This document shows positions 1 through 24,039 of a DNA stretch of 64,000 nt, one piece after another. The notes under the pieces are model-generated. The model had not been told where the DNA came from. It ran no database searches and saw only the letters and a program-made list of their open reading frames with translations. The position numbers and the translations under genes are program-made. This DNA is from an uncultured cyanobacterium. GTDB taxonomy: Bacteria; Cyanobacteriota; Cyanobacteriia; Cyanobacteriales; Cyanobacteriaceae. Location of the stretch: assembly GCA_963749915.1 (NCBI GenBank), contig CAVVOP010000021.1, positions 704,001 through 768,000 on the forward strand. Reading direction: 5' to 3'. Position 1 is the stretch's first letter. Each line of letters starts with the position of its first letter.

Positions 1-835
1 AGATTCTTTACCTACCTATAAGTATTATGCCTTGCGCTCTATAGCAACAACGATGCTTAGTAAAAACAAACAACAATATTCCAGTTATTTACGGGAGTTA
101 GAAGCGAAAAATCATTTCATTATCAAAGCACCTACTACGGGAATGCTAGGGCGATCTTTAAAATATTCCCTGCCCTTGCAAAGTTTTTTCAGCTTCAACT
201 GGGGAGCAGGGTCGCCTTTCATGGCTTGCCAATTCTACGCAATACGTATCATAGCTAACTTGTATCTCAAAAATATGGAGCATTCCATCGCTAAGTATTT
301 TCAGAAGTTGGAGAAGAAGGAGGAGTTTATCCCGGCTCCCACAGCGGTCTCTCGCTACCATTTTTTGGATGAATCTTTCCACACCACCATATCTCAATTA
401 CTGGCGAAAGATATGTATAAACATTTCCCTAAGCCAACAGCATATGAGAAATTTGTAGCTAACATGGTAATTTACATGATGCAAAGTGGCACTTTAGGCG
501 GGCTTTCTGGTGTGTTACCTCATCGTTATTTTGCCGATGACTACTCGATTATGGAGCTAATTTACCAGCTACTACAAGCCCCTTTATTTGGCATGTCCGC
601 CCAGGAAGCACTTCACTGGCTAAATCAGTGCTTATGTTATGAACATGAAGGTTTTCATGGGGCACTGGAGAATCGCCAACGCCTTTTATCAGAAATGTGC
701 CGATTCTTTGAAGATATTGATTATCTCTGGCCCATCAACCGAGAAATGCGTTTAATGGCCGCACGAGGTTCAATCAGCGAAGCCATCGGCAACAATATCA
801 GGACCTTTGAGCATTTTTCTCGCTCGGTAACTTAA
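1..835 (+). CDS. CylC/BrtJ-type dimetal-carboxylate (ferritin-like) halogenase, 5'-truncated by window edge
   Basis: Frame is open from position 2 (DSLPTYKYYALRS...). Has HFLDESFHTTISQ (ExxH metal motif) and RIIANLYLKNMEH, typical of CylC-family enzymes. Sits next to KS/ACP genes. Confidence 0.8.
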   Translation, partial: DSLPTYKYYALRSIATTMLSKNKQQYSSYLRELEAKNHFIIKAPTTGMLGRSLKYSLPLQSFFSFNWGAGSPFMACQFYAIRIIANLYLKNMEHSIAKYFQKLEKKEEFIPAPTAVSRYHFLDESFHTTISQLLAKDMYKHFPKPTAYEKFVANMVIYMMQSGTLGGLSGVLPHRYFADDYSIMELIYQLLQAPLFGMSAQEALHWLNQCLCYEHEGFHGALENRQRLLSEMCRFFEDIDYLWPINREMRLMAARGSISEAIGNNIRTFEHFSRSVT

Positions 836-923
836 TTGTTCTCGATAGCTAGAACTAGAAATAACTCCGACTATTGTTAAGTCTTTTTTCCCTAATTACT
901 TTACTTTTTTGAATTTATTAAAT

Positions 924-3395
924 ATGGAACCCATAGCAATTGTTGGCATTGGTTGCCGTTTCCCTAAAGCAAAGAATCCCGAAGCCTTCTGGCAATTATT
1001 AAGAAATGGTGTAGATGCGATCACCGAGGTACCGTCAGAGCGGTGGGATATTGACAGATTTTATGAGCCTCAGCCAGCTACCCTAGGAAAAATGAATACT
1101 CGCTGGGGATGCTTTTTGGAACATGTAGATCAATTTGACCCTGGCTTTTTTGGTATTTCCACCCCTGAAGCAGAACACATGGATCCCCAGCAAAGATTGA
1201 TGTTGGAGGTAGCCTGGGAAGCTTTAGAAAACGCCGGAATAATACCAGAAACGCTGGGGGGTACCCAGACTGGGGTATTCGTTGGCATCACCAATGCTGA
1301 TTACAATAAACTTATCTACAAAGATGCTTACCAAGTCGGGGCATACAGTCCCACGGGGACCACCCAGTGCATTGCCGCTAATCGTCTGTCCTACTTGCTG
1401 AATCTGCGAGGACCCAGTATGGCCATCGATACGGCTTGTTCGTCGTCATTATTGTCAGTTCATTTGGCGTGTCAGAGTTTGAGGAGCTTAGAGTCGTGTT
1501 TATGCCTGGTCGGGGGAGTCAATCTGGTGCTGATTCCCGAACCAACTGTAAGTTGTTCCCAAGCTCAAATGCTGTCCTCTGAGGGTCGCTGTAAGATTTT
1601 TGATGCCAGTGCCAATGGCTATGTTCGGGGAGAGGGCTGTGGCGTAATTATCCTCAAGCGTCTATCTGATGCTGTTCAAGACGGAGATAATATCCTTGCC
1701 CTCATCAGGGGTACAGCAGTTAACCACAATGGGTTGAGCAACAGTCTGAGCGCACCCAATGGACTCGCTCAACAGTCTGTAATTCGCCAAGCTTTAGAAA
1801 ATGGAAACGTCAAACCCCCAGAGATTAGCTATGTTGATGCTCACGCTGTCGGTAGTGGGCTCGGAGACGCCATCGAGTTTAAAGCCCTTAAAGCAGTTCT
1901 CATGGAAGGTCGCGAGCCAGATCAACCCTGTAGGATAGGCTCGGTCAAAACCAATATCGGTCATTTAGAATCTGCTGCTGGGATTGCTGCTTTGATTAAA
2001 GTAGTCCTCTCGTTGCAACACGAAGAAATTCCTCCGCACCTACATCTTGAAGAGCTTAATCCTTATATTTCTCTGGAAGATACCCCATTTTCCATTCCTA
2101 CCAAGTTACAGCCATGGTCTCGTGGAGAAAAGAGTCGTTTCGCTGGGGTAAGTGCTTTTAGTTTTGGTGGCACTAATGCTCACATTATTTTAGAGGAAGC
2201 ACCCCGTTCAGTAAACACTCATCAGTTAGAAGTAAACAGTAATAAAGAAACCGAGCGTCCACTCCATCTATTAACCCTATCAGCTAAAACAGAAAATGCC
2301 TTATTAGAATTAGTTGGTAATTATCAAAACTATTTGGCAACTCATCCGCAATTAAAGCTTGCAGATATTTGCTTTACTGCTAATACTAAACGCACACATT
2401 TTAACCACCGCCTCTGTATAGTTGCTGAATCCATCGCCCAGTTACGGGAAAAGTTAAAGCCTATTATCGCTCAAGAAACAACTGCTAGAGTATTCAGGGG
2501 TAAAGTAAAGGGCAGAAAACGCCCTAAAATTGCTTTCTTCTTCCCCGAGAATGAATCGGCATCTCTGAGTATGGGGTATCAACTATATCAAACTCAGCCG
2601 ACATTTCGTCAAGCTTTCGATCGCTGTGCTGATTTTCTGCAACCCTACTTAGAAAAACCTCTCTTAGAAGAACTAGGAAAGAATTCTCAATCCCAAATCG
2701 ACCAACCTGCCTTATTTGCCCTGGAATATGCCCTTGCCCAACTGTGGTATTCCTGGGGTATTAAACCCAAAGCAGTTATGGGTTGTGGAATCGGAGAATA
2801 CGTTGCGGCTACCGTAGCTGGGGTATTTAGTCTAGAAGAAGCCCTTAAATTGATTGCCGAAAGAACTCGTCTAAAGCAAGCAAACTGTTCGCTGGAAGAA
2901 ACCCTCTCTGCTTTTGCACCAATAGCCGAACAAGTAAGCTACTCTCAACCAAAGATTGGCTTTATTTCCACTTCCAGTGGAGAATTGACAACAAAATCAA
3001 TAGCGACTCCCGAGTATTGGTGTCTTCATTTACAACAGTCGGAAATCTCTGCTGGTGGTATAGAAGCTTTAGCCGACTATCAAGTGGTTTTGACCATGGG
3101 TTCACAGGCGACTTCTTTATGCCAAGAAGTGGGAACTCACCTATTTAGCTTAGGTCAAGGACGAGATGATTGGCTAGAAATGCTTTCTAGTTTAGGAGAA
3201 TTATTTGTTCGCGGGATAGCCATAGACTGGTGTAGTTTTGACCGAGATTATCCCCGTCGTCGTCTCCAACTACCGACTTATCCATTTCAGCGACAGCGAT
3301 ACTGGTTTAAATCTACTGATAATGAGCAGCAATTATTGCCTCACCACAAAGATCTAGACTCTGACTTCGAAAAAGTTTTGGCCCTCTCATCTTAA
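924..3395 (+). CDS. Type I PKS KS-AT didomain with degenerate AT (KS-AT0)
   Basis: MEPIAIVGIGCRFP start, DPQQRL, DTACSSS (catalytic Cys), HAVGSGLGD (normally HGTGT), KTNIGHLE, LPTYPFQRQRYW. AT motif is GCGIG instead of GHSxG and the AT is shortened. ATG 924 preferred over TTG 909. Confidence 0.9.
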   Translation: MEPIAIVGIGCRFPKAKNPEAFWQLLRNGVDAITEVPSERWDIDRFYEPQPATLGKMNTRWGCFLEHVDQFDPGFFGISTPEAEHMDPQQRLMLEVAWEALENAGIIPETLGGTQTGVFVGITNADYNKLIYKDAYQVGAYSPTGTTQCIAANRLSYLLNLRGPSMAIDTACSSSLLSVHLACQSLRSLESCLCLVGGVNLVLIPEPTVSCSQAQMLSSEGRCKIFDASANGYVRGEGCGVIILKRLSDAVQDGDNILALIRGTAVNHNGLSNSLSAPNGLAQQSVIRQALENGNVKPPEISYVDAHAVGSGLGDAIEFKALKAVLMEGREPDQPCRIGSVKTNIGHLESAAGIAALIKVVLSLQHEEIPPHLHLEELNPYISLEDTPFSIPTKLQPWSRGEKSRFAGVSAFSFGGTNAHIILEEAPRSVNTHQLEVNSNKETERPLHLLTLSAKTENALLELVGNYQNYLATHPQLKLADICFTANTKRTHFNHRLCIVAESIAQLREKLKPIIAQETTARVFRGKVKGRKRPKIAFFFPENESASLSMGYQLYQTQPTFRQAFDRCADFLQPYLEKPLLEELGKNSQSQIDQPALFALEYALAQLWYSWGIKPKAVMGCGIGEYVAATVAGVFSLEEALKLIAERTRLKQANCSLEETLSAFAPIAEQVSYSQPKIGFISTSSGELTTKSIATPEYWCLHLQQSEISAGGIEALADYQVVLTMGSQATSLCQEVGTHLFSLGQGRDDWLEMLSSLGELFVRGIAIDWCSFDRDYPRRRLQLPTYPFQRQRYWFKSTDNEQQLLPHHKDLDSDFEKVLALSS

Positions 3396-3446
3396 TTATA
3401 CGGAAACTTAACAAAAAACTTGTGTTCTATTATTAGGTAAAAACCA

Positions 3447-3761
3447 ATGAAAGAAAAGATTTTAGAAGCCCCACAGCATCCGAGTACTCCATCGATGAGT
3501 GCAGAAGATATTCAAGATTGGTTGGCATCTCAAATTGCTGAACAGTTAGGAGTCGACCCCGATGAGATTGATATTCGAGTACCTTTCGATAGCTACAGCT
3601 TAGACTCTGTGCAGATCATGGCCATTGCGAGCCTAGGAAAACAATATTTAGGTCTGCAACTCTCTCCCCTGGTTATCTGGAATTATCCCAATATTGACTC
3701 TCTGTCTCACCACTTGGCTCAAGAATTACAAGCTTCGGAAATAGAGGTTTTAGAACTATGA
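3447..3761 (+). CDS. Stand-alone acyl carrier protein with C-terminal docking motif
   Basis: FDSYSLDSVQIM phosphopantetheine site, WNYPNIDSLS, acidic C-terminus SEIEVLEL. Confidence 0.9.
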   Translation: MKEKILEAPQHPSTPSMSAEDIQDWLASQIAEQLGVDPDEIDIRVPFDSYSLDSVQIMAIASLGKQYLGLQLSPLVIWNYPNIDSLSHHLAQELQASEIEVLEL

Positions 3762-5668
3762 AAACTATCCATGTATCAGAACTTTTGACAAATCTTAGTC
3801 AACAAGGGGTTCAGTTGTGGAGTGATCATGACAAATTAAAAATCAATGCTCCCAAGGGAACTTTAACCCCACAAATTCAGGCAGATCTAACCGCACGCAA
3901 AACAGAAATTCTCACTTTTTTGCGTGAAAGTAATGATTCTGGTTGCCAAACTTCTACTGGACTAAGTTTACAGACAATTGGTCGTTTAATTGGTGGATCT
4001 TGTCCTAGTTCTCCCATAGAGTTCAAATCACCCATTGTCGATCCCAAAGTAATGGCAAAACACCTCAAAGTTACCTTGAGACCATTGCCAAAAGGATTTG
4101 AGAATCAAGCTATTCTGAAGCTTGGCCAAGAATTAGAACTCAAGCTGCGAAACTACGGCGTGCAAATTATTTCTTGGGAAAAAGCAACCAGGGACTTTGC
4201 TTATGGAATTCCTATTCCCTTAACTAAATGGAAAAAAACGATTAAAACCAGAGTAGTTAAACCTGAAATTAGTGCGGTAATAGATGTTAGCAGACCGAGC
4301 AATAAAATTAAAAGTTTTATTGCCGAAAAATTCTATCAAATTTATTCTCAATTTTTCTTGAGAAATCAAAAAAAATCCCTTGCGACAATTACCAAGTTGA
4401 TTGCCTGGGCTGAAGATCATACAATGCAACGTCTCGAAGATCCTACCGCTACTCAAGTAATTATGTTGACACAGCTCGATCGAGATTTTGTTGACTCAAA
4501 AGTCCCCTATGAAAGGAAAATTGCTATTGGTGTAAATACTTTAGTAAAAAGCTTTGCTGAAATTGTGATCGGGGTATCTGAGAGCAAGATTTCTATCTTA
4601 AATATGAATCTTGCCGATTCTCTTTTTCCGAGAGAAAAGTTTGATGATTTCGTTTTGAAATCCTTAATTCCGAAAATTTACGTACCGATCGCACCTTTGC
4701 CCCTCAATCGCTTTGCCATAAGTAAATACAATCCCAAACAATCACTTTATGCAACTAAATTACAACAATTGAGTCAAGAATTGGCAAATACGGGACTTTT
4801 TCCTTCCGGCTTCAAACTCGGTGAGATAATTAAACGGCAATCCCATCGAGACATTGTTGATTCAATTGTCAATGGTAGAACAGGTGTTTCTTACGGTTTT
4901 GTTGCTTATGCCGAGCCACCACAGTATATTGGCGATCGCCAAATCACAGAAAGTCAGTGGCAAAGTCTCTCATCCGTAGAGGGATTTAGTAGCAAGGAAG
5001 TCCGTCAAAATGCCATGGGCAGACGGTATCTCAAAACCAAGATCAAGGATCGATACGCCTACAAACAAATTCCCGATATCTGGCTAGTATGTTCCCGTTC
5101 CGGTGCCAATAAGACAGATTTAAAGCTAGAGGGTGACATTCTTAGGATAGGTATGAAAAATAATTTATACCTTGAGATAGCAGAAGGTATCGATCCGACA
5201 CAAGTAGATGTCAAGCCTTCTTACGATACTTACGTGATGGTAGCGATCGCCCTCTCAGCAGCTCTGTATGCACCTGAATTAATAGAGAATGGTGCACCAA
5301 TGATTCATTTTCACGGCTATCCAGCCAAAGACTGGTTTGAGTCAAAGGAATTTTGGGCTGGAGTTGAGCATCCCTCTGTCCCCTGTGGAACTTATGAATC
5401 GGGAGTATTCAATTTTCTCAGTATTTATAATTTGGTCAACCAAAAGGACACCCCTATTGCCTTAGCCAGTCTAATCGAACCGGATCACGGCACGAATATT
5501 ATCACCAGCGATTCGGAGTATTTACTAGCAAGATTAGCAAGGGGAATCCAACAGCAACAAATCGAATTAGGTGGCAAGCATTTTGCTTCCCTTAGCGAAA
5601 GACCCTTAGCCGTGGCAAATCCGCAAGGATACACCGCCATTTGCCCTGACAAAAGTTTGAACATGTAA
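3758..5668 (+). CDS. Uncharacterised enzyme: TubC-N-type beta-hairpin docking domain plus C-terminal class II aldolase/adducin-like domain
   Basis: N-terminus ELLTNLSQQGVQLWSDHDKLKINAPKGTLTP...TARKTEILTFL resembles TubC_N. C-terminus has SRSGANK...D, KPSYD, IHFHG, PCGT and PDHG in the order seen in class II aldolases. ATGA overlap with the ACP gene. Confidence 0.6.
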   Translation: MKTIHVSELLTNLSQQGVQLWSDHDKLKINAPKGTLTPQIQADLTARKTEILTFLRESNDSGCQTSTGLSLQTIGRLIGGSCPSSPIEFKSPIVDPKVMAKHLKVTLRPLPKGFENQAILKLGQELELKLRNYGVQIISWEKATRDFAYGIPIPLTKWKKTIKTRVVKPEISAVIDVSRPSNKIKSFIAEKFYQIYSQFFLRNQKKSLATITKLIAWAEDHTMQRLEDPTATQVIMLTQLDRDFVDSKVPYERKIAIGVNTLVKSFAEIVIGVSESKISILNMNLADSLFPREKFDDFVLKSLIPKIYVPIAPLPLNRFAISKYNPKQSLYATKLQQLSQELANTGLFPSGFKLGEIIKRQSHRDIVDSIVNGRTGVSYGFVAYAEPPQYIGDRQITESQWQSLSSVEGFSSKEVRQNAMGRRYLKTKIKDRYAYKQIPDIWLVCSRSGANKTDLKLEGDILRIGMKNNLYLEIAEGIDPTQVDVKPSYDTYVMVAIALSAALYAPELIENGAPMIHFHGYPAKDWFESKEFWAGVEHPSVPCGTYESGVFNFLSIYNLVNQKDTPIALASLIEPDHGTNIITSDSEYLLARLARGIQQQQIELGGKHFASLSERPLAVANPQGYTAICPDKSLNM

Positions 5669-5689
5669 TTTAATGCGGAACTGAGCGAC

Positions 5690-6559
5690 ATGACAACCAT
5701 AGCAGGTAAAACAGTACTTCTAACCGGTGCCTCCCGAGGTATTGGCCTATTTATCGCCCGTGAACTAGCCAAAAAACAGGCAACTATAGTGGCTGTAGCC
5801 CGTTCCCGAGAAAAATTGGATCGAGTCTGTGGGGAAATTAATAATAATTGGGGTGGGAAAGCTATTGGCATTTCTTTCGACCTAAGCCAGGTAGAACAAC
5901 TACCAACCTTGGTAGAAAAGATTGAAAAACAGGCTGGTTCGATTGACATCTTAATTAACAACGCCGGCAGAGAAATCTATCGAGCTTTCCCCGATTATTC
6001 CCTTGCTGAGCTTCAGTCAGTTTTATCAATTAACTTGCTGGCGGCGATGGAGTTGACCCGTTTACTATTGCCAAATATGTTAGAGCAACGCACCGGTCAC
6101 GTTGTCAATATTGCCTCTCTGGCTAGTAAAAAGGGACATCCTTACGACAGTATTTATTCTGCCAGTAAAGCCGGTTTGCTGATGTGGGCTGATGCCCTCA
6201 GACAAGAATTAGCGAATACTGGAGTAGGAATTTCTTCTATTTGCCCTGGATACATTTCCGACTTCGGACTGTTAGCCGATACTGGCGTGCCCTCACCGAG
6301 TTTGGCAGGCACCTCTAAATCACAAGATGTAGCCAAAGCAGTAGTGGGGGCGATCGAGAAAAACAAAGCGGAAGTCATAGTCAATGGTGGATTGCTTACA
6401 GAAAGTCTAACAAAGCTATTATTGGCGATCGAACAATTTTTTCCTCAACTGGGAGATTCGGTTAATCAGTTGCTAGGTGTAACTAGGCTCAATCAAATGC
6501 GCATTAAAGCTGTTGAGAATAATCAGAAAAATACTAAACAAGCGAGTTTAGTTAGATAA
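5690..6559 (+). CDS. Short-chain dehydrogenase/reductase
   Basis: TGASRGIG, NNAG, YSASK motifs. Confidence 0.92.
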   Translation: MTTIAGKTVLLTGASRGIGLFIARELAKKQATIVAVARSREKLDRVCGEINNNWGGKAIGISFDLSQVEQLPTLVEKIEKQAGSIDILINNAGREIYRAFPDYSLAELQSVLSINLLAAMELTRLLLPNMLEQRTGHVVNIASLASKKGHPYDSIYSASKAGLLMWADALRQELANTGVGISSICPGYISDFGLLADTGVPSPSLAGTSKSQDVAKAVVGAIEKNKAEVIVNGGLLTESLTKLLLAIEQFFPQLGDSVNQLLGVTRLNQMRIKAVENNQKNTKQASLVR

Positions 6560-6630
6560 ATTTTCCACAAAATAACCAAGATTTCAAGGCCAAAAAAAAC
6601 AACTTATCAGGTACAGGAGGTTTAATTAAG

Positions 6631-7785
6631 ATGAAAAAAGTATATTTCATGATTTACGACATGGGGGCAGGTCATCGTAGCACTGCCAATGCCTTGAAAG
6701 AAGTTATCGAACAGTACAAAATCCCCTGGAAAGTTGAAGTCGTTGAAGTTTTCAAAGAAGTCTTTGGCATGACTAGACCCCAGTTTGTCTATAACAATTG
6801 GGTATTGAAAAAAAAATGGGCAAAACTGATTAATGACCCCTTATCGGTTCCCTTATTCAAGCTGGAAATTCGCCTTCGACATCGAGCTTGGCAAAAACGC
6901 CTGAAAGATTATTGGCGGCAGCATCAACCAGATCTCGTCGTTTCTCTGATGCCACTAGTTAATCGGGTGCTTTCTGAAAGCTTACAGGAAGAGCTACCAA
7001 AAACTCCTTTTGTTACCTCGATCACGGATTTTGCTGACTGCCCTCCCCACTTCTGGATTGAACCCCAAGAACAGTTGCTAATTTGTCCTTCTGAGCAAGC
7101 AGTTAAACAAGCACAATCTTTTGGTTATCCCCTGGAAAGAATTTACCGAACCTCGGGAGTAGTTATTCACCCTCAGTTTTATGAGCCAGTGAAAATGGAT
7201 CGGCCGGTTGAAAGACAACGCTTAGGACTAGATCCAGATTTACCCACAGGCCTAGTTATCTTTGGCAGTAATGGCTCGAAGGAAATGATCGAGATTGCTG
7301 AGCGTTTAGAGAATTCATCCCTAAACCTCCAACTCATCTTTATCTGCGGCAGAAATGAAAAACTAGCCAAAGAGTTGCAAAATAGGCAAACTCGCTTCCC
7401 TAAGTATGTTGAAGGATTTACCACACAAATTCCCCACTATATGGATTTATGCGATTTCTTCATTGGTAAACCTGGCAGTGTTGGCGTTAGCGAGGCTGTA
7501 GGCAGAAAACTGCCAGTAATTACGGAGTGTAATAATCTCACAACTTTGTTTCAAGAACGAGCTAGTGCCCATTGGCTGACAGATAACGGATTCGGCATTG
7601 TTGTTGAGAATTTCCGCGAGATTAGCAAAGCCGTGGCAGAACTAATCCAGCCGGAAAACTTGTCTCGCTATCGGTCTAATGTGGAAGCTTATAACAATCG
7701 GGCTGTCTTTGAAGTTGTCGATATTTTAGAAAAAATCCTGGAAAACTCAACACTAGAAGCTGACCACAAATTAATTCAAGTGTAA
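6631..7785 (+). CDS. GT28 / MGDG-synthase-like glycosyltransferase (paralog 1)
   Basis: GAGHRSTA, PDLVVS, ITDF, ICGRN, FIGKPG motifs. Confidence 0.85.
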   Translation: MKKVYFMIYDMGAGHRSTANALKEVIEQYKIPWKVEVVEVFKEVFGMTRPQFVYNNWVLKKKWAKLINDPLSVPLFKLEIRLRHRAWQKRLKDYWRQHQPDLVVSLMPLVNRVLSESLQEELPKTPFVTSITDFADCPPHFWIEPQEQLLICPSEQAVKQAQSFGYPLERIYRTSGVVIHPQFYEPVKMDRPVERQRLGLDPDLPTGLVIFGSNGSKEMIEIAERLENSSLNLQLIFICGRNEKLAKELQNRQTRFPKYVEGFTTQIPHYMDLCDFFIGKPGSVGVSEAVGRKLPVITECNNLTTLFQERASAHWLTDNGFGIVVENFREISKAVAELIQPENLSRYRSNVEAYNNRAVFEVVDILEKILENSTLEADHKLIQV

Positions 7786-7867
7786 AAAACGATGAGGCTT
7801 CACAGATCGCTGTGCGATCGCAACTATTACCAATTTTCGAGAAAACAATTTTGATGGAGAATTGAAC

Positions 7868-8701
7868 ATGAAAACTATAGCAAACAAAACAGTAGTTTTA
7901 ACTGGAGCTTCAGGGGGTATTGGTGCATTCGTTGCTCGTGCTTTAGCCCAAGAGGGAGCAACCGTAGTCGGGGTTTCTCGTTCTCAGGCAAATTTAGAAC
8001 AAATCTGTACTGAGGTTGAGACATTGGGGGGCAAAGGAATCAGCATTCCCTTCGACATCAGCCGCCTAGAAAAATTACCCGTCCTGGTAGAAAAGATTGA
8101 GGCAATTGCTGGTTCAGTTGATATTTTAATTAACAATGCGGCAATTGAAAAATTTCGACCTTTCCCAAACTACGCCTTAGAAGATATCCAATCGATCTTG
8201 ACGCTCAATCTTCATGCACCCATGGAATTAACCCGCTTGTTATTGCCAAGCATGATAGAGCGAAACAGTGGTCATATCGTCAATATTTCTTCGGGTGCTG
8301 GTAAAAAAGGAGCACCTTTTAACAGCGTCTATTCTGCCAGTAAAGCAGGTTTAATCACCTGGTCTGAGGGAATACGACATGAGTTAGCCAAGACCAATAT
8401 CGGAGTTTCGGTAATCTGCCCTGGATGTACCAATGCGGGAATGTTCCTCGCCCTAGATATTCCAGCACCTAGTGGAGCTCGCATTGCCGAACCATCAGAG
8501 GTGGCAGATGTGGTAATTCAAGCCATTAAGCAAAACCAAAAAGAAGTCATCCTCGATAGTTTTGCGGTCAAGGTTTTTTATGCCCTTTCCCAACTGTCTC
8601 CAGACTTTGGCGATTCGATGATTCAAAAATCTGGAGTGGTAGAGACGAACCAAAGTCTTGCTCAAAAGCAAATGCAGCTTAAAAGTCTCGTCCGCAATTA
8701 A
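7868..8701 (+). CDS. Short-chain dehydrogenase/reductase (paralog of 5690..6559)
   Basis: TGASGGIG, NNAA, YSASK; visibly similar to the first SDR. ATG 7868 preferred. Confidence 0.92.
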   Translation: MKTIANKTVVLTGASGGIGAFVARALAQEGATVVGVSRSQANLEQICTEVETLGGKGISIPFDISRLEKLPVLVEKIEAIAGSVDILINNAAIEKFRPFPNYALEDIQSILTLNLHAPMELTRLLLPSMIERNSGHIVNISSGAGKKGAPFNSVYSASKAGLITWSEGIRHELAKTNIGVSVICPGCTNAGMFLALDIPAPSGARIAEPSEVADVVIQAIKQNQKEVILDSFAVKVFYALSQLSPDFGDSMIQKSGVVETNQSLAQKQMQLKSLVRN

Positions 8702-14677: not shown

Positions 14678-14686
14678 GGGCTAATA

Positions 14687-16049: not shown

Positions 16050-16166
16050 TGACGTAATCGCTCCGGATTTTCCCCTCAAGTGCGTTGAGGTACTCGAACG
16101 AGATCCTTCCGTGGTCTTGTGTCACTTCCAGACAAATTGTGCTAGGACAAGTTTTTAGGTGTAACT

Positions 16167-17732
16167 ATGAAATCAATTCAAAAAAAACAAATCGAGAACC
16201 AAAAAACAATAACGCAGACCAAACAAAATCGTTTCAAAGTGCTCACGCTATCGGCGATGTGTTTGACACTTTTCATGACTAATCTCAATGATACGGTTAT
16301 GAATGTGGCACTTCCCCAAATTCAAATAATTTTGGGTTCTAATGTGTCGGGATTACAATGGATTCTCAACGCCTACACCCTAACGGCAGCTAGTCTCATG
16401 CTGCCAAGTGGAACCTTGGGAGATATTTATGGACGCAAGCGAGTTTTTCTGATGGGACTGGTAATTTTTACCATTGCTTCTCTAGCCTGCGGACTCGCTC
16501 CCAATTTGGCCACTTTGATTGTCGGACGAATGCTCCAAGGAATAGGTGCTGCTGCCTTAATCCCAACTTCTCTGGCCATCCTCACCGATACTTTCCCCGA
16601 ACCGACGGAGAAAACTAAAGCGATTGGTGTTTGGTCTGCGGTGTCAGGAATTGCTCTGGTTCTAGGTCCGGTGTTTGGTGGAGTCCTGGTAGATAATTTG
16701 GGATGGCAGAGCGTGTTCTTTCTTAATCTACCCCTAGGTGCGCTCGCTTTTTGGGTGAGTTGTCGTTTTGTTGGGAAAGGTAGACATCCCAGTCAGCAAA
16801 GTATAGATTTACTAGGTATCTTGCTGAGTGTCGGCTTACTAGCTTCGGTTACCTATGTTCTGACGGAGGGAAATACGTCGGTTGGGCGATCGCTCTGGCT
16901 ATTAGCAATTGCTATCTTTAGTTTGCTAGCATTTCTGTTGGTTGAGTCCCACAGTCGTCACCCGATGTTGCCCCTCAAGCTGTTCCAAAAACCAGCATTT
17001 GCTGTAGTTAATCTGGTCAATATTCTGGTATTTTTTACTTTCCTGAGCTTAATCTTCATTTTTAGTCTTTTCCTGCAGCAAGTACAGGGATATTCAGCTA
17101 CGGCAGCAGGAATGCGCTTTTTGCCCCTGAATGGAGCCTTTGTGAGCGCCTTGCTCGTTTCTGGATGGTTTGCAGCTCGGCTCGGCTGGCGTTTTACGAT
17201 CGCAGCAGGATTGATGCTGGCGAGCGTAGCGACCTTTTCTTTTATCCGCATCGGTGCCAATACCGAGTATGGAGTAATGTGGGCGGGGCTGGTTCTCTCA
17301 GGTTTTGGCGGTGGATTGACTCTGGCACCCTTAGCAACGGTAGCTTTAAGTTCTGTACTCCCAACTCAAGTGGGAATTGCTTCCGCCTTACTCAACGTCA
17401 CCACCCGTTTCGGTGGTGTTTTGGGAATTGCCCTCCAGGGCAAGATTCTTTCTCAAAGGCTCACCTTAGACTTGACCAGATCTCTCTCTGATTGGAACTT
17501 GCCCTCTACCTTGCAAGAGCGATTAATCGCCGCTGCTTTGCATGGCGGTTCCAAAGTTCCCAATGCCCTTCCCCTGAGCATTTCTCCCTCAGTTTGGCAT
17601 CAAGCCTTTAGTCAAGCATTTGTGTCGGGGTTACATGCTGCTATTTTAATCGCCAGTGTTGTTCTCTTAGTTGGAGCATTTTTAATTCTGGTGTTTGTAC
17701 CACCGATGCTGAAGGAGCGATCCCAGGTTTGA
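16167..17732 (+). CDS. MFS DHA2 (EmrB/QacA-type) efflux transporter
   Basis: NVALP, WILNAYTL, GTLGDIYGRKR, GRMLQGIG, WQSVFFLNLP; many hydrophobic segments. Confidence 0.92.
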   Translation: MKSIQKKQIENQKTITQTKQNRFKVLTLSAMCLTLFMTNLNDTVMNVALPQIQIILGSNVSGLQWILNAYTLTAASLMLPSGTLGDIYGRKRVFLMGLVIFTIASLACGLAPNLATLIVGRMLQGIGAAALIPTSLAILTDTFPEPTEKTKAIGVWSAVSGIALVLGPVFGGVLVDNLGWQSVFFLNLPLGALAFWVSCRFVGKGRHPSQQSIDLLGILLSVGLLASVTYVLTEGNTSVGRSLWLLAIAIFSLLAFLLVESHSRHPMLPLKLFQKPAFAVVNLVNILVFFTFLSLIFIFSLFLQQVQGYSATAAGMRFLPLNGAFVSALLVSGWFAARLGWRFTIAAGLMLASVATFSFIRIGANTEYGVMWAGLVLSGFGGGLTLAPLATVALSSVLPTQVGIASALLNVTTRFGGVLGIALQGKILSQRLTLDLTRSLSDWNLPSTLQERLIAAALHGGSKVPNALPLSISPSVWHQAFSQAFVSGLHAAILIASVVLLVGAFLILVFVPPMLKERSQV

Positions 17733-18457
17733 ATTGAGATCATTGAGTATTGTGGATTAAACTCAGCAATTCTATAAAGTAAAGAGACAAACAAAATTGT
17801 TTGAGAAAAGGAGAAAATGTGACACAAAATACTTGACAAAACTTTCCGGAAGAATTAGTATTTAGTGAGTATTTTCACTTATTCCTCTAAACAACAAATT
17901 AAATATGGTTCCAACAGAAGAACTTTCACGAAAAGGAGATTAGAAATCGTGCAGCAAACATCTAATTCTATCCCCTTACCTTCCTTGATTCCGAATCAAA
18001 ATAAATCAAAAACACATCCGGCAATTATGACACGTATCAGAAAATTTTATCGAACTTCGTAAAATTTCTTAACAATCAAAACAGCTACGAGAACACCGAT
18101 TCACTATTTAATATTTTCTTAATGTTATGCAATGAACAAGTGCTGAAACTCATATTTTTTGCGTTACATTCTTTGTTTTGTAGTATACAAAAATGTTTAT
18201 TTAATTGGTGTTCTAGAAGGTTTTATTAATCACCACTATGGTTAATTTTGGTACAAAATAATATTCTCCAAAAGTTGCCAAAGGACGAAAGGTACGTTAC
18301 TTATTTAGGGGCTCTTTAATCTTTAGAAAACCTCTTTTTTTAGTGCGGTAATGGGTGCACCCAGAAATCTTCCTTTCCCTCTTGCTCAACTTGGAGACTT
18401 TTTGTGCAACATTTTTCTGAAAAAAAATAGTAAAACATCTACAAAAAGTAAACAATA

Positions 18458-21367
18458 ATGGAAGAGCAAACTTTAAATGTCTCACTGCTGTCCCCTGTCA
18501 GTGATCTGATTTCGGGGGCAGGCACTGATCTCGATCTCATTTTCGGACGGGCCGGGAATGACGTTTTTTATCCGTTTGATCCGCTGGAAGATACTGATGC
18601 CCTGATCAATATTGACATTCTGTTTGGTGATATCTTTGACAACACACCAGAGGAATTTGAGGTCACGCTTGGCCTTGCAGGGGGCGACCCATTTGCCATC
18701 CTAAATGCGGATATTCCATCGATCGGAGCCGATCGATTTGTCCTAGGAGATGAATTTAGACCATATTATACAAGCTCCAATCCGCTCTCTCTGATAACCA
18801 CCAACTTCCTAGGGTTTAATGATTTTGCCCTCATTTATGATTTTGACCCTAATCAAGATACGATCCAACTTAACGGCGATAAAGATGACTACTTGTTGGT
18901 GAAAATAGATGCTCTCTCAGTTAGTGCGATCGCTGGGGGTGAGGCTGTCCCTGGCGACGTAACTGATTTCTCTGGCTATGCACTCTTTTCCCTGGAGTCT
19001 GGCGTCCCTGATGTGGTCAGTTTAATTGCCCAGAAGCCGGACGTGGAATTAAAGCTGGATGATGACGGGTTCCTATTTGTCGGTGATAAACCCGAGGACG
19101 ATCCTGAGGATAAGAAGATTGGCCAGTTTGGCACCACTGGCCTCGATTACGGCTATGCCGTGGCCACTGACACCTATGGCAACCTGTATGTTGCTGGCAC
19201 GACCAGCGGTTCTCTGAATGGCCCCAACCAAGGATCCTCTGATGTTTGGGTTACCAAATATAACTCCAGCGGCAATCAGGTTTTTGCCAAGCAGTTCGGG
19301 TCTGCGGCTGGAGAATCCGTCACCGAAATTATCACCGATAAGGATGGTAATTTCTATCTGGCGGGAAGTACCACCGGCAGCTTTGTTGACACCTTAAAGT
19401 CCACCAGAGGCTCAGATGCTTGGGTGGCTAAATATAGCAGCAACGGCACGATGCTGTGGGGGCGTCAGTTTGGCAGTAGTGCTGCTCAGACGCTGCCGGG
19501 AGATGAGTTTGGCTTCTCCACCAGTGCCTTTGGTTTGCAACTCGATGCCAATGGCGACGTCTATCTGTCTGGACTCACCATCAATGATAACTGGAAAGGA
19601 ATCCTAGACTTTCCGGTCGAGGATGATTCCTGGGTGATCAAGCTGGATGGTGCAACGGGTAACAATGAGTGGACCACCAGCACCAAAATTACGCCGCCGC
19701 CCCAAGATGTAGATCCCAACTTCCCCTTCTTAGCAGCCTTTAGTCCCTTCTTTGATGAAAGCTACGATCTCGCCGTTGACTCCCAAGGTAATTCCTACCT
19801 GGTGGGATGGTCCCAAGGTCTGACCACCATCTCCGACCCCAGTCGAGATTTACAAAAATACGATGTCTGGCTAGCTAAAGTGAACACCGCTGGCGAGATT
19901 GAGTGGGTGCGCCAATTTGGCAGTGCCGATCGGGGTTCAGAATTTGGTTGGGCTGTGGATACTGATGGCCAAGATAATGTCTACGTCTCCGGATGGACAA
20001 ATGGTAACCTAGGAGAACTGAGTGAGGATTTTAAGAAGGCGGCCGCGCGGGACATCTTCCTTGCCAAGTTCACCCCAGACGGTGAGATGGACTTTACCAA
20101 GCAATTTGGCTCTCCGGGCGATGATGGACAGTATTTCTCTGACATGTTCATTGATGCCTCTGACAATATTTTCTTGACGGGGTATACCGATGGTAAGTTG
20201 GGTGACGGCGACGACGACAAAAGCATCAATGCTTGGATCGGCCGCTTTGATACTGCTGGGAACAACCAATGGATTCAACAACTTGGCATCAAGGATAAAG
20301 CTGACTATGCTACCGGCGTGACCGTCAATAGTGGTGGTCAGCTGTTCGTAACTGGATTCACAGAAGGCCTATTGGGCACTAGCAGCAGTGGCAACGCGGG
20401 TTCTGCTGTCGATGCCTGGCTGGCTGAGCTCGATATCGAGAAAGGAAAACTGCAAGAATTTGAAGGGACTTCCGGAAATGTCATCAGCATCGCCGATCCT
20501 GGTGCGATCGCTGTAAGTGATGTAACTGCTCAGTTTCTAGTGGGGGATGACCTGCCTACTGGGACCAAAAATATTCCTAACCCTGGGGCCTATTACGGTG
20601 AGATTCTGGATGGCATGTCTCCCTTCTTTGACCCCAACTCCGCAAATTCCCTCCAGTCGTCCTTGATCGACGCCATGATGAATGATCCCAGTGTCTTTGG
20701 GGGCACCATGCCCAGCCTGAAGCTGGAGGGCTCTGATGGGGTCAATGATGTGCTCATGGGCTTTATGGGCGATGACGAGCTCAAAGGCAAGAAGGGGGAT
20801 GATGAACTCCATGGTCTTGCTGGTGATGACAAGCTGGAGGGCGAAGACGGCAACGATACACTTTTTGGCGGTGCCGGTGAAGATGAAGTCAAAGGTGGTA
20901 AAGACAACGATGAACTTCATGGCGATGCCGATGCTGACAAACTTAAAGGTGATGATGGTGATGACCTGCTCATCGGTGGTGCTGGTAACGATGAACTAGA
21001 GGGTGAAGATGACAACGATACGCTGATTGGTGTGAATCCGGACGCCGCTAAGGCTGGGTTTGGTGAATACGACAAATTAAAAGGCGGTAACGAAGCTGAT
21101 CTCTTTGTTCTTGGGGGGGCTAACCAAGCATACTATGTCGGTCAGGGTAATCTTGATTTCGCCCTAATCGATGACTTCAAGCTAGATCAAGGAGATATGA
21201 TTCAGCTTTACAGCAGTGCTAGCTACAGCCTGGGAGAAAATATATCTGGTCTGGAAAAGGGAACAGCTATCTTCTTTGAAGGCAATGACCTGATTGCTAT
21301 CGTCAAGGATGTCAAAGACCTCAGTCTCACTGATACCAGTGTCTTCTCCTTTGTATTAAGCGAGTAA
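18458..21367 (+). CDS. CylK/BrtB-like RTX Ca-binding plus SBBP beta-propeller protein (candidate alkyl-halide alkylating enzyme)
   Basis: N-terminal IFGRAGND / GADRFVLGD / IYDFDPNQDTIQL. Repeated D..GN.Y..G.T.G / D.W..K....G...W..QFG propeller blades. C-terminal GG.G.D nonapeptide RTX repeats. Located in a CylC-halogenase cluster. Confidence 0.72.
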   Translation: MEEQTLNVSLLSPVSDLISGAGTDLDLIFGRAGNDVFYPFDPLEDTDALINIDILFGDIFDNTPEEFEVTLGLAGGDPFAILNADIPSIGADRFVLGDEFRPYYTSSNPLSLITTNFLGFNDFALIYDFDPNQDTIQLNGDKDDYLLVKIDALSVSAIAGGEAVPGDVTDFSGYALFSLESGVPDVVSLIAQKPDVELKLDDDGFLFVGDKPEDDPEDKKIGQFGTTGLDYGYAVATDTYGNLYVAGTTSGSLNGPNQGSSDVWVTKYNSSGNQVFAKQFGSAAGESVTEIITDKDGNFYLAGSTTGSFVDTLKSTRGSDAWVAKYSSNGTMLWGRQFGSSAAQTLPGDEFGFSTSAFGLQLDANGDVYLSGLTINDNWKGILDFPVEDDSWVIKLDGATGNNEWTTSTKITPPPQDVDPNFPFLAAFSPFFDESYDLAVDSQGNSYLVGWSQGLTTISDPSRDLQKYDVWLAKVNTAGEIEWVRQFGSADRGSEFGWAVDTDGQDNVYVSGWTNGNLGELSEDFKKAAARDIFLAKFTPDGEMDFTKQFGSPGDDGQYFSDMFIDASDNIFLTGYTDGKLGDGDDDKSINAWIGRFDTAGNNQWIQQLGIKDKADYATGVTVNSGGQLFVTGFTEGLLGTSSSGNAGSAVDAWLAELDIEKGKLQEFEGTSGNVISIADPGAIAVSDVTAQFLVGDDLPTGTKNIPNPGAYYGEILDGMSPFFDPNSANSLQSSLIDAMMNDPSVFGGTMPSLKLEGSDGVNDVLMGFMGDDELKGKKGDDELHGLAGDDKLEGEDGNDTLFGGAGEDEVKGGKDNDELHGDADADKLKGDDGDDLLIGGAGNDELEGEDDNDTLIGVNPDAAKAGFGEYDKLKGGNEADLFVLGGANQAYYVGQGNLDFALIDDFKLDQGDMIQLYSSASYSLGENISGLEKGTAIFFEGNDLIAIVKDVKDLSLTDTSVFSFVLSE

Positions 21368-21547: not shown

Positions 21548-22861
21548 ATGGTTAGAAAAATAGATGTCAATGATACCCCATTCTTAAAGCCAGGAATTCC
21601 CTGGATTGTTGTCTTATCAATAGTGGGACTCCTGAGTATCGGGGCTAATATTGTCTATGGCCTTAGATCCACTCAGCCCCCCTCAACCTTATCAATTACC
21701 GCCTCGGAAAAGATTCCTGAAATTAAATCGGTTACGGCTCTAGGACGGCTGGAACCCCAAGGAAAAACGATCCAATTAGCACCTCCGCCAAACTTGGGGG
21801 GTGCTAAGGTCGTTGAATTGCTAGTGAAAGAGGGAGATCTCGTTAAGGCCAACCAGGTAGTGGCTATCCTCGAAAATCGAGATTTGCTCCAAGCTGCTGT
21901 GGAACAAACACAACAGGATGTTAAAGTAGCTCAAGCGAATCTGGCCATTGTCAAAGCTGGAGCTAAATCAGGGGAAATTCAGTCCCAAAATGCCACCATT
22001 AAAAGATTAGAAGCTCAGTTACAAGGAGAAAGTATCAGCTATCAAGCTAAAATCCTTCGTCTTCAAGAGAAATTACAAGGGGAAAAGGGGACTCAACAAG
22101 CAACCATTGATCGTTTGCAAGCAGAACTTCGTAATGCACAAAGTGAGTATCAACGTTATCAGCAACTTGCTGAAAATGGGGCTATCTCGGCCTCGGATTT
22201 GGATCGTCGTTCTCTGATCCTAGAAACAGCGCAAGAGAAACTAAAAGAAGCACAAGCTACTTTTAATCAAACCATTGCGACTCTAGAGCAAGATATCCGA
22301 GAGGCAAAAGCTAATGCCCAACAAGCCAAAGATACCGTATCTCAACAAATTCAAGAAGAAACAGCGGAACTCCATCGCATTACTGAGGTGCGGGATGTGG
22401 ATGTCTACAAAGCTCAAGCCGAAGTTGAAAGGGCGAAAGCTTCCCGACAAAAAGCTCGAGAAGAATTGGAATTAACCTATGTTAAAGCTCCCATAACCAG
22501 TCGCGTCCTCAAAATCTATACTTACCCTGGAGAGAGAGTGCCATCAGAGCAGAGTATTTTAGAGTTAGGCAATACAGACCAGATGATGGTAATTGCTGAA
22601 GTTTATGAAACTGATGTTGCTCAAGTAAAACCAGGACAAACTGTTAAGATTAAAAGCGAAAATGGAGCTTTTCCTGGTGAATTAGAAGGAACTGTAAGTG
22701 AGGTGGGTTGGCTCATTAACCAACAAGGAATTTTTGAAATCGATCCATCTTCAGATGTAGATAATAGAGTAGTTGAAGTTAAGATCAAATTAAATGAAGA
22801 AGAACGGGACAAATTCACCCGATTAACCTATTCACAGGTCATCGTCAAAATTTTTCTTTAA
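21548..22861 (+). CDS. DevB/HlyD-family ABC exporter membrane-fusion protein
   Basis: N-terminal TM helix, VTALGRLEPQG, LLVKEGD, long coiled coil, AEVYETD, DNRVVEVKI. Confidence 0.9.
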   Translation: MVRKIDVNDTPFLKPGIPWIVVLSIVGLLSIGANIVYGLRSTQPPSTLSITASEKIPEIKSVTALGRLEPQGKTIQLAPPPNLGGAKVVELLVKEGDLVKANQVVAILENRDLLQAAVEQTQQDVKVAQANLAIVKAGAKSGEIQSQNATIKRLEAQLQGESISYQAKILRLQEKLQGEKGTQQATIDRLQAELRNAQSEYQRYQQLAENGAISASDLDRRSLILETAQEKLKEAQATFNQTIATLEQDIREAKANAQQAKDTVSQQIQEETAELHRITEVRDVDVYKAQAEVERAKASRQKAREELELTYVKAPITSRVLKIYTYPGERVPSEQSILELGNTDQMMVIAEVYETDVAQVKPGQTVKIKSENGAFPGELEGTVSEVGWLINQQGIFEIDPSSDVDNRVVEVKIKLNEEERDKFTRLTYSQVIVKIFL

Positions 22862-22887
22862 TTAACTCAAGGTTGAAATCTCTACTT

Positions 22888-24039
22888 ATGATAAAAACTT
22901 CTTTAGCTTGGTTACAATTAAACCACCAAAAAACTCGCCTCTTAATCGCATTAGCAGGAGTCGGTTTTGCTGATATGCTGATGTTTATTCAGCTTGGGTT
23001 TCAAGCTGCACTTTTTGAAAGTAATGTCAGATTTCACAAAAGTTTTCGAGGAGATCTTTTTTTAATTAGTCCTGACTCTCGTTCTACTATATCGATGGAA
23101 GCTTTTTCTCGCACGCGGATCTATCAATCCCTAGCTATTGAGGGGGTTCAATCAACTACTACGGTCTATATGGATTTTGCTTCTTGGAAAAATCCCGTTA
23201 ATCGCAGTACCCGTACTTTACTTATTGTTGGCTTAAATCCTGATAGTAATCCTCTGAATTTACCAGGTTTATCAAAAACAATTGCTTCGATTAAACACAG
23301 AGATGTTTATTTATTTGATGCCCTATCTAGGGAAGAATTTGGACCTGTTCCCTCCTTACTTGAGGAGAAAAAGAGTGTTACAGCAGAAATAAACGATCAT
23401 CGCGTTAAAATTGGAGGATTATTTGCTTTAGGAGCTTCTTTTGCCGCTGATGGAAATCTCATCACTAGTGATATTAATTTTCATCGTCTTTTGCCTGACA
23501 GAGATCGAAGTTTGATTGATGTTGGGGTTATTCACTTAAATGAGAATGCTGATTTACAGTTAGTTCAAAAAGCTTTAACAGAGAAACTCCCACCAGATGT
23601 TAGAATTTTATCTAAGGAAGAGTTTATTGAGTGGGAGAAACACTATTGGAAAACTAGTACTGCGATTGGATTTATCTTTTCCATGGGAACCGGAATTGGT
23701 TTTATGGTTGGAGTTTTAATTGTTTATCAAATTCTCTATACTGATATCTCAGATCGCCTACCCGAATATGCAACTTTAAAAGCAATTGGTTATAAAAATC
23801 GTTACTTTATTTTGGTTGTTTTTCAAGAAGCAATTATCTTAGCAATATTAGGTTATATTCCAGGTATTTCAATAACAATGATACTGTACTCATTGGCAGC
23901 AGGTGCTACAAATTTACCGATTATTATGACTATAACTAGGGCTATTACTGTTTTAACCTTAACTATTATAATGTGTTCTGTGTCTGGACTAATTGCAATT
24001 CGTAGACTTAATGCTGCCGATCCATCTGACCTTTATTAA
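22888..24039 (+). CDS. devC: DevC-family ABC transporter permease
   Basis: LAWLQL...RLLIALAGVGFADMLMFIQLGFQ, GASFAADG, YQILYTD...EYATLKAIGY, ADPSDLY. Confidence 0.88.
   Translation: MIKTSLAWLQLNHQKTRLLIALAGVGFADMLMFIQLGFQAALFESNVRFHKSFRGDLFLISPDSRSTISMEAFSRTRIYQSLAIEGVQSTTTVYMDFASWKNPVNRSTRTLLIVGLNPDSNPLNLPGLSKTIASIKHRDVYLFDALSREEFGPVPSLLEEKKSVTAEINDHRVKIGGLFALGASFAADGNLITSDINFHRLLPDRDRSLIDVGVIHLNENADLQLVQKALTEKLPPDVRILSKEEFIEWEKHYWKTSTAIGFIFSMGTGIGFMVGVLIVYQILYTDISDRLPEYATLKAIGYKNRYFILVVFQEAIILAILGYIPGISITMILYSLAAGATNLPIIMTITRAITVLTLTIIMCSVSGLIAIRRLNAADPSDLY

Follow-up and report, generated by a model that had tools for sequence, protein, structure and literature searches.

The window analysed here is a stretch of 64,000 nucleotides from an uncultured cyanobacterium of the family Cyanobacteriaceae (GenBank assembly GCA_963749915.1, contig CAVVOP010000021.1; G000:C21:704001-768000). 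Its first part is occupied by a biosynthetic gene cluster, in which 17 co-oriented open reading frames (ORFs) on the forward strand fill window positions 2-24039 (Table 1). Families were called with Pfam and NCBIfam, and these calls bear out the ORFs and functions listed in the initial annotation, an earlier reading of the same DNA that had also predicted a fatty acyl-AMP ligase (FAAL) and an acyl carrier protein (ACP) further upstream. The upstream genome sequence contains both just 5' of the window. With them the cluster comprises 19 genes in about 27 kb, the first 2.9 kb of which precede the window. A second halogenase, which had been thought possible upstream, is not found, as the whole genome holds a single copy. 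The cluster is likely to be of the nostochloroside (ngl) type and to make a chlorinated long-chain 1,2-diol bearing up to three sugars, the units of which would be joined through ether bonds by a CylK-family enzyme.

Table 1. Features of the gene cluster and its upstream edge. Positions are those of the window, or of the contig where marked C21. Identities refer to counterparts in related clusters.
Feature	Position	Strand	Length (aa)	Remarks
IS200-type Y1 transposase, C-terminal fragment	C21:700277-700462			about 670 bp before FAAL start; profile positions 69-121 of 121
FAAL (fatty acyl-AMP-ligase-type adenylase)	C21:701135-703027		630	outside window, upstream
ACP1	C21:703117-703386		89	outside window, between FAAL and halogenase
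CylC-type diiron halogenase, NglC-like	1-835	+	453	C-terminal 277 codons of gene C21:703474-704835
KS-AT0	909-3395	+	828	ketosynthase (KS) triad Cys177/His312/His352 (C-H-H)
ACP2, free-standing	3447-3761	+	104	PP-binding E 5e-13; LDS serine motif present
NglG-like docking protein	3758-5668	+	636	TubC_N E 2e-19, sole family match
SDR1, NglH-like ketoreductase	5690-6559	+		adh_short E 2e-55
GT28-type lipid glycosyltransferase a	6631-7785	+		MGDG_synth E 1.4e-10; 61-79% identical in five related clusters
SDR2, NglJ-like	7862-8701	+		adh_short E 4e-56; 81% identical in G162, 55-58% in G403/G404
GMC flavin oxidoreductase, NglL-like by annotation	8745-10322	+		GMC_oxred_N and GMC_oxred_C
UDP-galactopyranose mutase (Glf)	10356-11522	+		TIGR00031 450.3 bits (cut-off 303.75); GLF Pfam E 6e-72
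Class I SAM methyltransferase, NglN-like by annotation	11572-12489	+		Methyltransf_23 E 1.5e-21; 62% identical in G260/G162
GT28-type glycosyltransferase b	12525-13751	+		Glyco_tran_28_C and MGDG_synth; 60-78% identical in related clusters
Polytopic membrane protein	13766-14677	+	303	no Pfam or NCBIfam family
GT28-type glycosyltransferase c	14814-16049	+		MGDG_synth and Glyco_tran_28_C; 78% identical in G162, 60% in G403
DHA2-family MFS efflux permease	16167-17732	+		TIGR00711 266 bits (cut-off 230); 47-67% identical in related clusters
CylK-family alkyl-halide-utilising enzyme, NglO-like	18458-21367	+	969	SBBP beta-propeller and C-terminal RTX
DevB-family membrane fusion protein, NglP-like by annotation	21548-22861	+		TIGR02971 322 bits (cut-off 129)
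DevC ABC-exporter permease, NglQ-like by annotation	22873-24039	+		TIGR01185 524 bits (cut-off 290)

The ngl (pks3) cluster of Nostoc punctiforme ATCC 29133 makes nostochlorosides, 12-chloro-C21-1,2,6-triol lipids that bear 6-O-methylgulose and are built from a palmitate starter (Glasser et al., Nat Chem 2024, PMC10849952, cited here and below for excerpted passages). In the RNA-seq gene list of that paper the cluster begins with a type II thioesterase (TEII), a FAAL, an ACP, a hypothetical protein (the halogenase), three type I polyketide synthases (PKSs) and the TubC_N hypothetical protein NglG. It continues with a short-chain dehydrogenase/reductase (SDR), an FAD oxidase, a second SDR, an NAD-epimerase, a GMC oxidoreductase, a group 1 glycosyltransferase (GT1), a methyltransferase, the SBBP/RTX protein NglO, a DevB-type membrane fusion protein (MFP) and DevC. 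Loci Npun_F3356-3358 encode the FAAL, ACP and halogenase, F3367 the GMC protein, F3370 NglO, F3372 the MFP and F3373 DevC, at which the cluster, of about 36 kb, is annotated as ending (PMC10849952).

The gene set of the window had been taken to match no recognised pathway. Instead, 12 of the 19 window gene types are present in the published ngl list in the same order, the odd ones included, so that the gene content agrees in part with that of a characterised cluster. On one strand and in one order both clusters have the FAAL, the ACP, a CylC-type halogenase, a terminal KS/ACP without a working acyltransferase (AT) and a TubC_N protein with an aldolase-like domain. They also have in common two SDRs, the GMC oxidoreductase, the S-adenosylmethionine (SAM) methyltransferase, an RTX-tailed CylK homologue, and DevB with DevC but without DevA. 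The chlorinated glycolipid that had been expected as the product is the proven product class of ngl, the closest characterised cluster.

Clusters of this kind are found in many cyanobacteria. A scan with one genome per species returned 208 relatives, of which the best 80 fall in 76 loci, and genes were counted within the flanks covered. The CylK homologue is present in 68 of these loci, the NglG-like gene in 16 and the 303-aa membrane protein in five. At least one GT28-type gene accompanies the CylK homologue in 30 of the 68, and among these 30 Glf occurs in 23, the GMC oxidoreductase in 14, the methyltransferase in 17 and the major facilitator superfamily (MFS) permease in 26. The hosts include Nostoc, Desmonostoc, Komarekiella, Rivularia, Hydrococcus, Aliterella, Kovacikia and a metagenome-assembled genome of the Gloeobacterales. 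At E <= 1e-20 the CylK homologue finds a match in 23 of 401 cyanobacterial genomes, and this match is full-length, at 53-55% identity, only in G260, G368 and G162; the two same-genus and four same-family genomes of this sample have none.

Comparison over their full extent shows five clusters to be collinear with that of the window, at 43-93% identity per gene, and they are of two types. The uncharacterised long type (G260 and G162, and also the named loci L041-L066 from Nostoc, Desmonostoc, Komarekiella and others) shares the cassette of GT28, Glf, methyltransferase, MFS permease and CylK homologue at 47-93% identity, to which G162 adds SDR2, the GMC oxidoreductase and three glycosyltransferases. 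It has one reducing PKS module (1583/1596 aa) followed by a fused KS-AT0-ACP protein with C-Q-H near residue 342 of the KS. The CylK homologues of G260 and G162 are 742-747 aa long and lack the RTX domain that the window homologue has.

The short type comprises G401/L070 (Nostocaceae MO_167.B47), G403/L099 (J06626_6) and G404/L100 (MFD03250.bin.1.130), all uncharacterised. Like the window, these three of the five fully compared clusters have the short PKS layout with intact genes, at 43-90% identity: one KS-AT0 protein (834-868 aa, C-H-H), a free ACP, the NglG-like protein, GT28s, Glf, the 303-aa protein, the MFS permease and an RTX-bearing CylK homologue. Unlike the window, all three lack the methyltransferase, and L070 also lacks SDR2 and the GMC oxidoreductase. 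In L070 two tandem RTX-bearing CylK homologues of 943 and 1090 aa are divergent from the biosynthetic genes (L127/L128, G401:C197:51662-57834), and in G403 and G404 an extra small RTX-only protein of 346 and 416 aa, respectively, lies ahead of the FAAL (L125 5909-6949; L124, G404:C6:696595-697845).

A further cluster, L086 of Calothrix sp. PCC 7103, encodes by Pfam an enoylreductase-ketoreductase-ACP protein, a KS-ACP protein, a TubC_N protein, an SDR, a GT1, a methyltransferase and a CylK homologue. In tblastn of the window proteins the NglG-like protein is 60% identical, SDR1 63% and the methyltransferase 66% (the Methyltransf_23 gene at 8789-9796). On this sequence evidence the GT1-type Calothrix cluster appears to bridge the window cluster towards ngl. 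N. punctiforme itself is not among the best 80 of the 208 relatives, nor among the 120 listed of 596 NglG-like matches or the 120 listed of 298 CylK-homologue matches.

The halogenase candidate contains QExxH at 136 (QEYCH) and HxxDExxH at 296 (HFLDESFH). Both motifs are conserved in CylC and 241 homologues, in which Gln stands where AurF has Asp (excerpts of PMC12101540). The AurF Pfam model PF11583 scores 16.6 bits over 55 residues of the protein, against a cut-off of 29.6, and no Pfam family reaches threshold. Judged by its motifs, the enzyme is of the CylC kind, as had been supposed, and not of the AurF N-oxygenase family proper. It is 49-77% identical to its counterparts in the five related clusters, and a sequence search of the PDB with it gave no match.

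The 828-aa KS-AT0 protein is the only PKS between the halogenase and the NglG-like gene; modules of the NglD/NglE type, which in ngl reduce the chain, adding four carbons and the 6-hydroxyl (PMC10849952), are absent. Its AT match is partial, covering profile positions 13-123 of 319, and the GHSxG motif is degenerate to GCGIG, from which the AT is judged to be dead; the cluster encodes no trans-acting AT. The terminal KS of ngl, NglF, is C-Q-H at residue 344 (PMC10849952). This substitution is found neither in the window KS nor in the three other short-type KSs, all of which are C-H-H. The motif after the first His of the window KS is AHAVGS, not HGTGT. In the long Nostoc-type clusters the KS of the first module shares 74% identity with the window KS domain and the NglF-like C-Q-H KS 60%, and the linker of the window protein is closer to the terminal module (0.51) than to the first module (0.43). 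These mixed affinities suggest that modules were lost or gained by recombination. ACP2, which follows, is 61-63% identical to the C-terminal ACP of a 965/944-aa PKS in G260/G162, and its counterpart in the long-type clusters is the ACP fused to the terminal KS.

The NglG-like protein is the predicted chain-release and 1,2-diol-forming enzyme. Its family counts 596 proteins at E <= 1e-10 among 8000 scored, and the 120 of these that are listed are about 610-650 aa long with TubC_N only, except for one 479-aa fragment. An AF2 model of the window protein (pLDDT 83, pTM 0.82) has three domains. Residues 3-59 form a beta-hairpin docking domain with Z 9.7 to the docking domain of AerJ, which is the only part that PDB sequence searches with the protein recovered; ESM Atlas gave no usable match for residues 65-636. 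Residues 100-313 form an alpha/beta domain whose best match, at Z 10.2, is the CTP-binding domain of CoaB (5int_B, 143 residues aligned); receiver-like folds rank next at Z about 8, so that the likeness to CoaB is only suggestive. Residues 325-623 adopt, in the model, a class II aldolase fold, with Z 13.4 to FucA (2opi_B, root mean square deviation 4.8, 175 aligned) and Z 13.2 to RhuA (1gt7); the best Foldseek match is 1pvt at E 3.7e-4. Residues H517, H519 and H577 are invariant in 37 sequences, and their H-x-H...H spacing is one that we take to resemble that of the FucA zinc ligands. The same fold also matches decarboxylases and oxygenases, namely HMPDdc (2z7b, Z 11.4), pyruvic oxime dioxygenase (8il8, Z 10.9) and TqaM (9m0a, Z 9.8). 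Because the aldolase fold also houses these enzymes, aldolase chemistry is only putative for the NglG-like protein. The modelled fold supports the aldolase domain that Glasser et al. proposed for NglG from template searches (PMC10849952). SDR1 is 52-74% identical in the five related clusters, and each time its gene is directly 3' of the NglG-like gene.

The CylK homologue consists of an N-terminal domain, a beta-propeller and RTX repeats at about 760-969 (HemolysinCabind, E 4e-17). It matches the CylK structures 7FH8/7RON at E 5e-84, and the aligned blocks span residues 7-340 and 467-672 of the query. The aligner pairs R31 and Y468 with CylK R105 and Y473, whereas E434, which lies between the blocks, corresponds to CylK D440 by motif register and was not placed by the aligner. 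The level of this match and the conserved catalytic residues agree with the previous assignment of the propeller/RTX protein to the CylK/BrtB family. In NglO the residues are R84, E428 and Y460, and NglO has a C-terminal RTX domain, lacking in CylK, and oligomerises its monomer by etherification in vitro (PMC10849952). The catalytic Glu was considered as a marker of hydroxyl-using CylK homologues and was ruled out, the R/E/Y triad being present in 69 of 75 CylK-family sequences. The window enzyme is probably less than 42% identical to NglO, as NglO is not among the 120 listed of 298 matches, all of which are at least 42% identical.

Between the NglG-like gene and the exporters lie the genes that would glycosylate and modify the lipid. 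GT28-type glycosyltransferase a also matches the diglucosyl-diacylglycerol synthase model NF010135 at E 2e-30, below the cut-off of that model. The GMC oxidoreductase is 86% identical in G162 and 74% in G403/G404. Glf is the most conserved protein, with 79-93% identity in the five related clusters against 43-86% for the other cluster genes. Recent transfer of Glf was considered for the pairs at 90-93% identity and rejected: at conserved residues the identity of third codon positions is 0.59-0.64, compared with 0.52-0.60 for the NglG-like gene, and because these values are similar the high conservation of Glf is attributed to strong purifying selection. A furanose in the product is only a prediction, which rests on the presence of Glf. 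Nostochloroside is the one product of this cluster class with a solved structure, and the nuclear magnetic resonance shifts of its methylated gulose read as those of a pyranose. The ngl product is, however, no test of the furanose, because the ngl gene list has an NAD-epimerase and no Glf.

The 303-aa protein had been labelled lipid-kinase-like. It has 83 relatives at E <= 1e-5, some of which are named "dolichol kinase" by JGI, and its AF2 model is all-helical (pLDDT 88), the top two fold matches being CarS (5guf_A, Z 7.5) and CdsA (4q2e_A, Z 7.2), scores that fall short of what is safe for helical proteins. The Foldseek match is weak (probability 0.54, E 0.3), hhalign to the genome's own CdsA gives a probability of 3%, and PDB sequence searches gave no match. 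The label draws on the names of the relatives and on these weak fold matches, and the protein is only a possible member of the CdsA/CarS/dolichol-kinase superfamily of CTP-dependent lipid enzymes.

The MFS permease and the CylK homologue are encoded by neighbouring genes. In some cyanobacteria the two are fused in proteins of about 1000-1085 aa (P0289, P0293, P0302, P0305, P0308 and P0314). We argue from these fusions that the two neighbours would work together at the membrane.

Gene functions, gene order, catalytic motifs and homology to the related clusters are read from the sequence, and by analogy with ngl and with the cylindrocyclophane (cyl) pathway they may be assembled into a route. 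The FAAL would activate a free fatty acid and load it on to ACP1, where the diiron halogenase would chlorinate an unactivated mid-chain carbon of the acyl chain. The lone KS, with its C-H-H triad of the first-module type and dead AT, would pass the chain on to ACP2, either as it is or after one malonyl extension. The NglG-like protein would dock through its beta-hairpin domain and, with SDR1, release the chain as a 1,2-diol. Glycosyltransferase a would glycosylate this diol as a monogalactosyldiacylglycerol (MGDG) synthase would diacylglycerol, and glycosyltransferases b and c would extend the glycan. UDP-galactofuranose would come from Glf; SDR2 with the GMC oxidoreductase would remodel a sugar, which the methyltransferase would O-methylate. 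Export would proceed through the MFS pump and DevBC, with DevA and TolC encoded elsewhere. Finally, the CylK homologue would displace the chloride with a hydroxyl to give ether-linked oligomers. Only the 2-OH or a sugar OH would be available as this nucleophile, because there is no PKS ketoreductase module to install a mid-chain hydroxyl. If the chain starts from palmitate and is not elongated, a chloro-C17-1,2-diol is predicted as the aglycone, purely by analogy.

A more specific proposal, which we put forward only tentatively, is that the cluster encodes a natural minimal ngl-type pathway, which starts from a fatty acid and does without chain-building PKS modules. The three-domain NglG-type protein alone would then be a new kind of off-loading enzyme for PKSs, converting an ACP thioester into a 1,2-diol longer by one carbon, the RTX-tailed CylK homologue would use a sugar OH or the 2-OH, a nucleophile never shown for the family, and the product would be an exported, ether-linked, galactofuranose-bearing glycolipid polymer.

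Several observations weigh against the assignment to ngl and the product proposed. Seven of the 19 gene types are without an ngl counterpart (the three GT28s, Glf, the 303-aa protein, the MFS permease and, arguably, the AT0 remnant), and six ngl gene types are missing in the window (NglD, NglE, the FAD oxidase, the NAD epimerase, GT1 and TEII). Annotation, hallmark features and bridging relatives make the link to ngl, not alignment with proteins of N. punctiforme. With the CylK homologue of the GT1-type Calothrix cluster, that of the window shares just 38% identity by tblastn. A KS with C-H-H may elongate, which would change the aglycone, and the release of a 1,2-diol is a hypothesis even for ngl. 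DevA is not beside DevC: the only DevA of the genome above the cut-off lies at C21:68870-69526, 635 kb away.

Other readings account for parts of the same evidence. The aglycone may differ within the same family, if the KS makes one malonyl extension, with ACP2 loaded in trans, and the aldolase-fold domain is a metal-dependent (oxidative) decarboxylase, so that for example a 3-hydroxyacyl intermediate is trimmed by one carbon or a hydroxy-acid glycolipid is made. We consider this unlikely. The intact KS triad and the 74% identity to a condensing KS, that of the first module of the long-type clusters, agree with it, as do the structural matches to 2z7b, 8il8 and 9m0a, and the termination step is called uncharacterised by Glasser et al. 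(PMC10849952). However, the AT is apparently dead, no trans-acting AT is encoded in the cluster, AHAVGS replaces HGTGT, and the equivalent KS of ngl is C-Q-H and yet the same one-carbon gain is seen there (PMC10849952). Somewhat less probable again is that the CylK homologue, like BrtB, whose esterification activity is established (excerpts of PMC7081238), esterifies the alkyl chloride with free fatty-acid carboxylates, or that it is inactive, leaving stable chlorinated monomers in place of ether oligomers. The favoured mid-chain hydroxyl cannot be installed by a cluster whose PKS has no ketoreductase-bearing module, and a triad present in 69 of 75 family members cannot tell nucleophiles apart; but in its RTX tail and glycolipid context the enzyme agrees with NglO and not with BrtB, and O2 as the nucleophile is not excluded in the cited passages (PMC10849952), which favour a mid-chain hydroxyl as the NglO nucleophile.

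A remnant in decay, left over from a longer ngl-type cluster after the loss of PKS modules and DevA and making no product, appears very improbable. The chimeric-looking KS-AT0, the IS200 fragment upstream of the FAAL and the distant DevA would fit decay, but all 19 ORFs are open with their catalytic motifs kept, three further genomes carry the short layout intact at an identity as low as 43-90%, which implies long purifying selection, and ngl itself is annotated as ending at DevC. We give almost no weight to a resorcinol pathway like that of the bartolosides or cylindrocyclophanes with its resorcinol genes elsewhere in the genome. The pairing of a CylC homologue with a CylK homologue is as in the cyl and bartoloside (brt) clusters, but a resorcinol-forming type III PKS domain (PF00195/Chal_sti_synt_N) has no match in the whole genome, estimated as 100% complete, or in the 20 kb upstream of the window; DarAB was not searched for. 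In addition, every gene of the cluster has a counterpart in resorcinol-free ngl-type clusters. Within this scope the result agrees with the earlier statement that no resorcinol-forming gene lies between the halogenase and the exporters. The reading that we retain is a cluster of the ngl type that likely makes a chlorinated glycolipid, possibly oligomerised through ethers.

The base composition of the cluster differs from that of its surroundings. G+C from the FAAL to the CylK homologue is 43.3% compared with 37.5% for the genome, a value that only 2.2% of the 24-kb windows of the genome reach; the flanks have 36.6-37.3% and DevBC 39.0%. Besides the IS200 fragment, a radical-SAM gene on the opposite strand, ClpB and unrelated genes lie upstream of the FAAL, and a Ham1 gene, identified by Pfam, is directly 3' of DevC. 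The two same-genus genomes have counterparts of ClpB, the radical-SAM gene and Ham1 at 79-88% nucleotide identity, far apart from one another, and DevBC has only 65-67% nucleotide matches in same-genus genomes. Synteny was tried as a means to define the borders of an island and discarded, the flank genes being scattered in the same-genus genomes. These scattered flank genes, the IS200 fragment and the patchy distribution point, in our reading, to horizontal acquisition of the cluster. The DNA of window 1-18400 has no match in five same-family genomes except for a short tandem repeat at window 14729-14778, between the 303-aa gene and glycosyltransferase c, in which a heptamer of the TAAGTAA type recurs about seven times. 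This repeat, the only part of window 1-18400 with such matches, is found at dozens of places in same-family genomes, and because a host-typical repeat sits inside a cluster that looks acquired, long residence is suggested.

Sequencing runs listed as matching window 3758-12489 are sediment-metagenome DNA only, with no RNA run among them. A Uma2-family putative endonuclease at window 25080-25715 has many paralogous matches of 67-85% in the same-genus and same-family genomes. DDE transposases are present at window 31807-33441 and 58779-59918. An 850-aa fusion of a sugar-nucleotidyltransferase with hexapeptide repeats and a phosphoglucomutase/phosphomannomutase is encoded at 33803-36355, and a separate phosphoglucomutase/phosphomannomutase at 41181-42698. 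A polysaccharide locus of low G+C (27-36%) at 47406-58471 includes five GT2 genes, a Wzy_C-type ligase/polymerase and NAD-epimerases. Upstream of the window, at L001 4154-7635, six co-oriented small ORFs of 129-160 aa (three of exactly 134 aa) without a Pfam family are followed by a 929-aa Calx-beta/DUF4114 protein.

The short cluster bears on two steps that are open in ngl, the chain release with an extra carbon and a vicinal diol, and the choice of hydroxyl by NglO (PMC10849952). In that paper the termination step is uncharacterised, the 1,2-diol chemistry is a hypothesis, and one carbon is gained despite the C-Q-H KS. In the 27-kb variant termination would act directly on a chlorinated fatty acyl-ACP, and the favoured mid-chain hydroxyl nucleophile could not be made. 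With fewer variables than the ngl cluster of about 36 kb, it would lend itself better to heterologous expression and to reconstitution in vitro. The class as a whole appears modular, with zero, one or two reducing PKS modules and with sugar cassettes based on either GT1 or GT28/Glf, and it is spread over many cyanobacterial lineages. Our literature search found no later work on the NglO or NglG enzymes or on short ngl variants, and the excerpted text of Eusebio et al. 2021 (PMC8406957) makes no mention of glycosyltransferase or punctiforme.

The cluster resembles three known systems to different degrees. The hgl heterocyst glycolipid pathway, with DevBCA-TolC, likewise yields a glycoside of a long-chain polyketide-derived alcohol and has a HetN-type SDR and export of the DevB/DevC type; compared with it, the window lacks an adjacent DevA and adds the halogenase, the CylK homologue and the NglG-type termination enzyme. 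The cyl and brt pathways likewise use cryptic chlorination by a CylC-type enzyme, after which a CylK-family enzyme uses the alkyl chloride as an electrophile. They are resorcinol-based, whereas the window genome is without a type III PKS and the nucleophile of the ngl class is a hydroxyl, as shown for NglO. The ngl cluster is the nearest of the three. It has both NglD and NglE, without which the window cluster would form a shorter chain with no PKS-installed mid-chain hydroxyl, and its terminal KS is C-Q-H, whereas that of the window is C-H-H with a stand-alone ACP. In place of the GT1, NAD-epimerase, FAD-oxidase and TEII of ngl the window has three GT28s, Glf, the possibly CdsA-like membrane protein and the MFS pump. 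With these differences the cluster is a variant of the published ngl architecture and not an unprecedented pathway.

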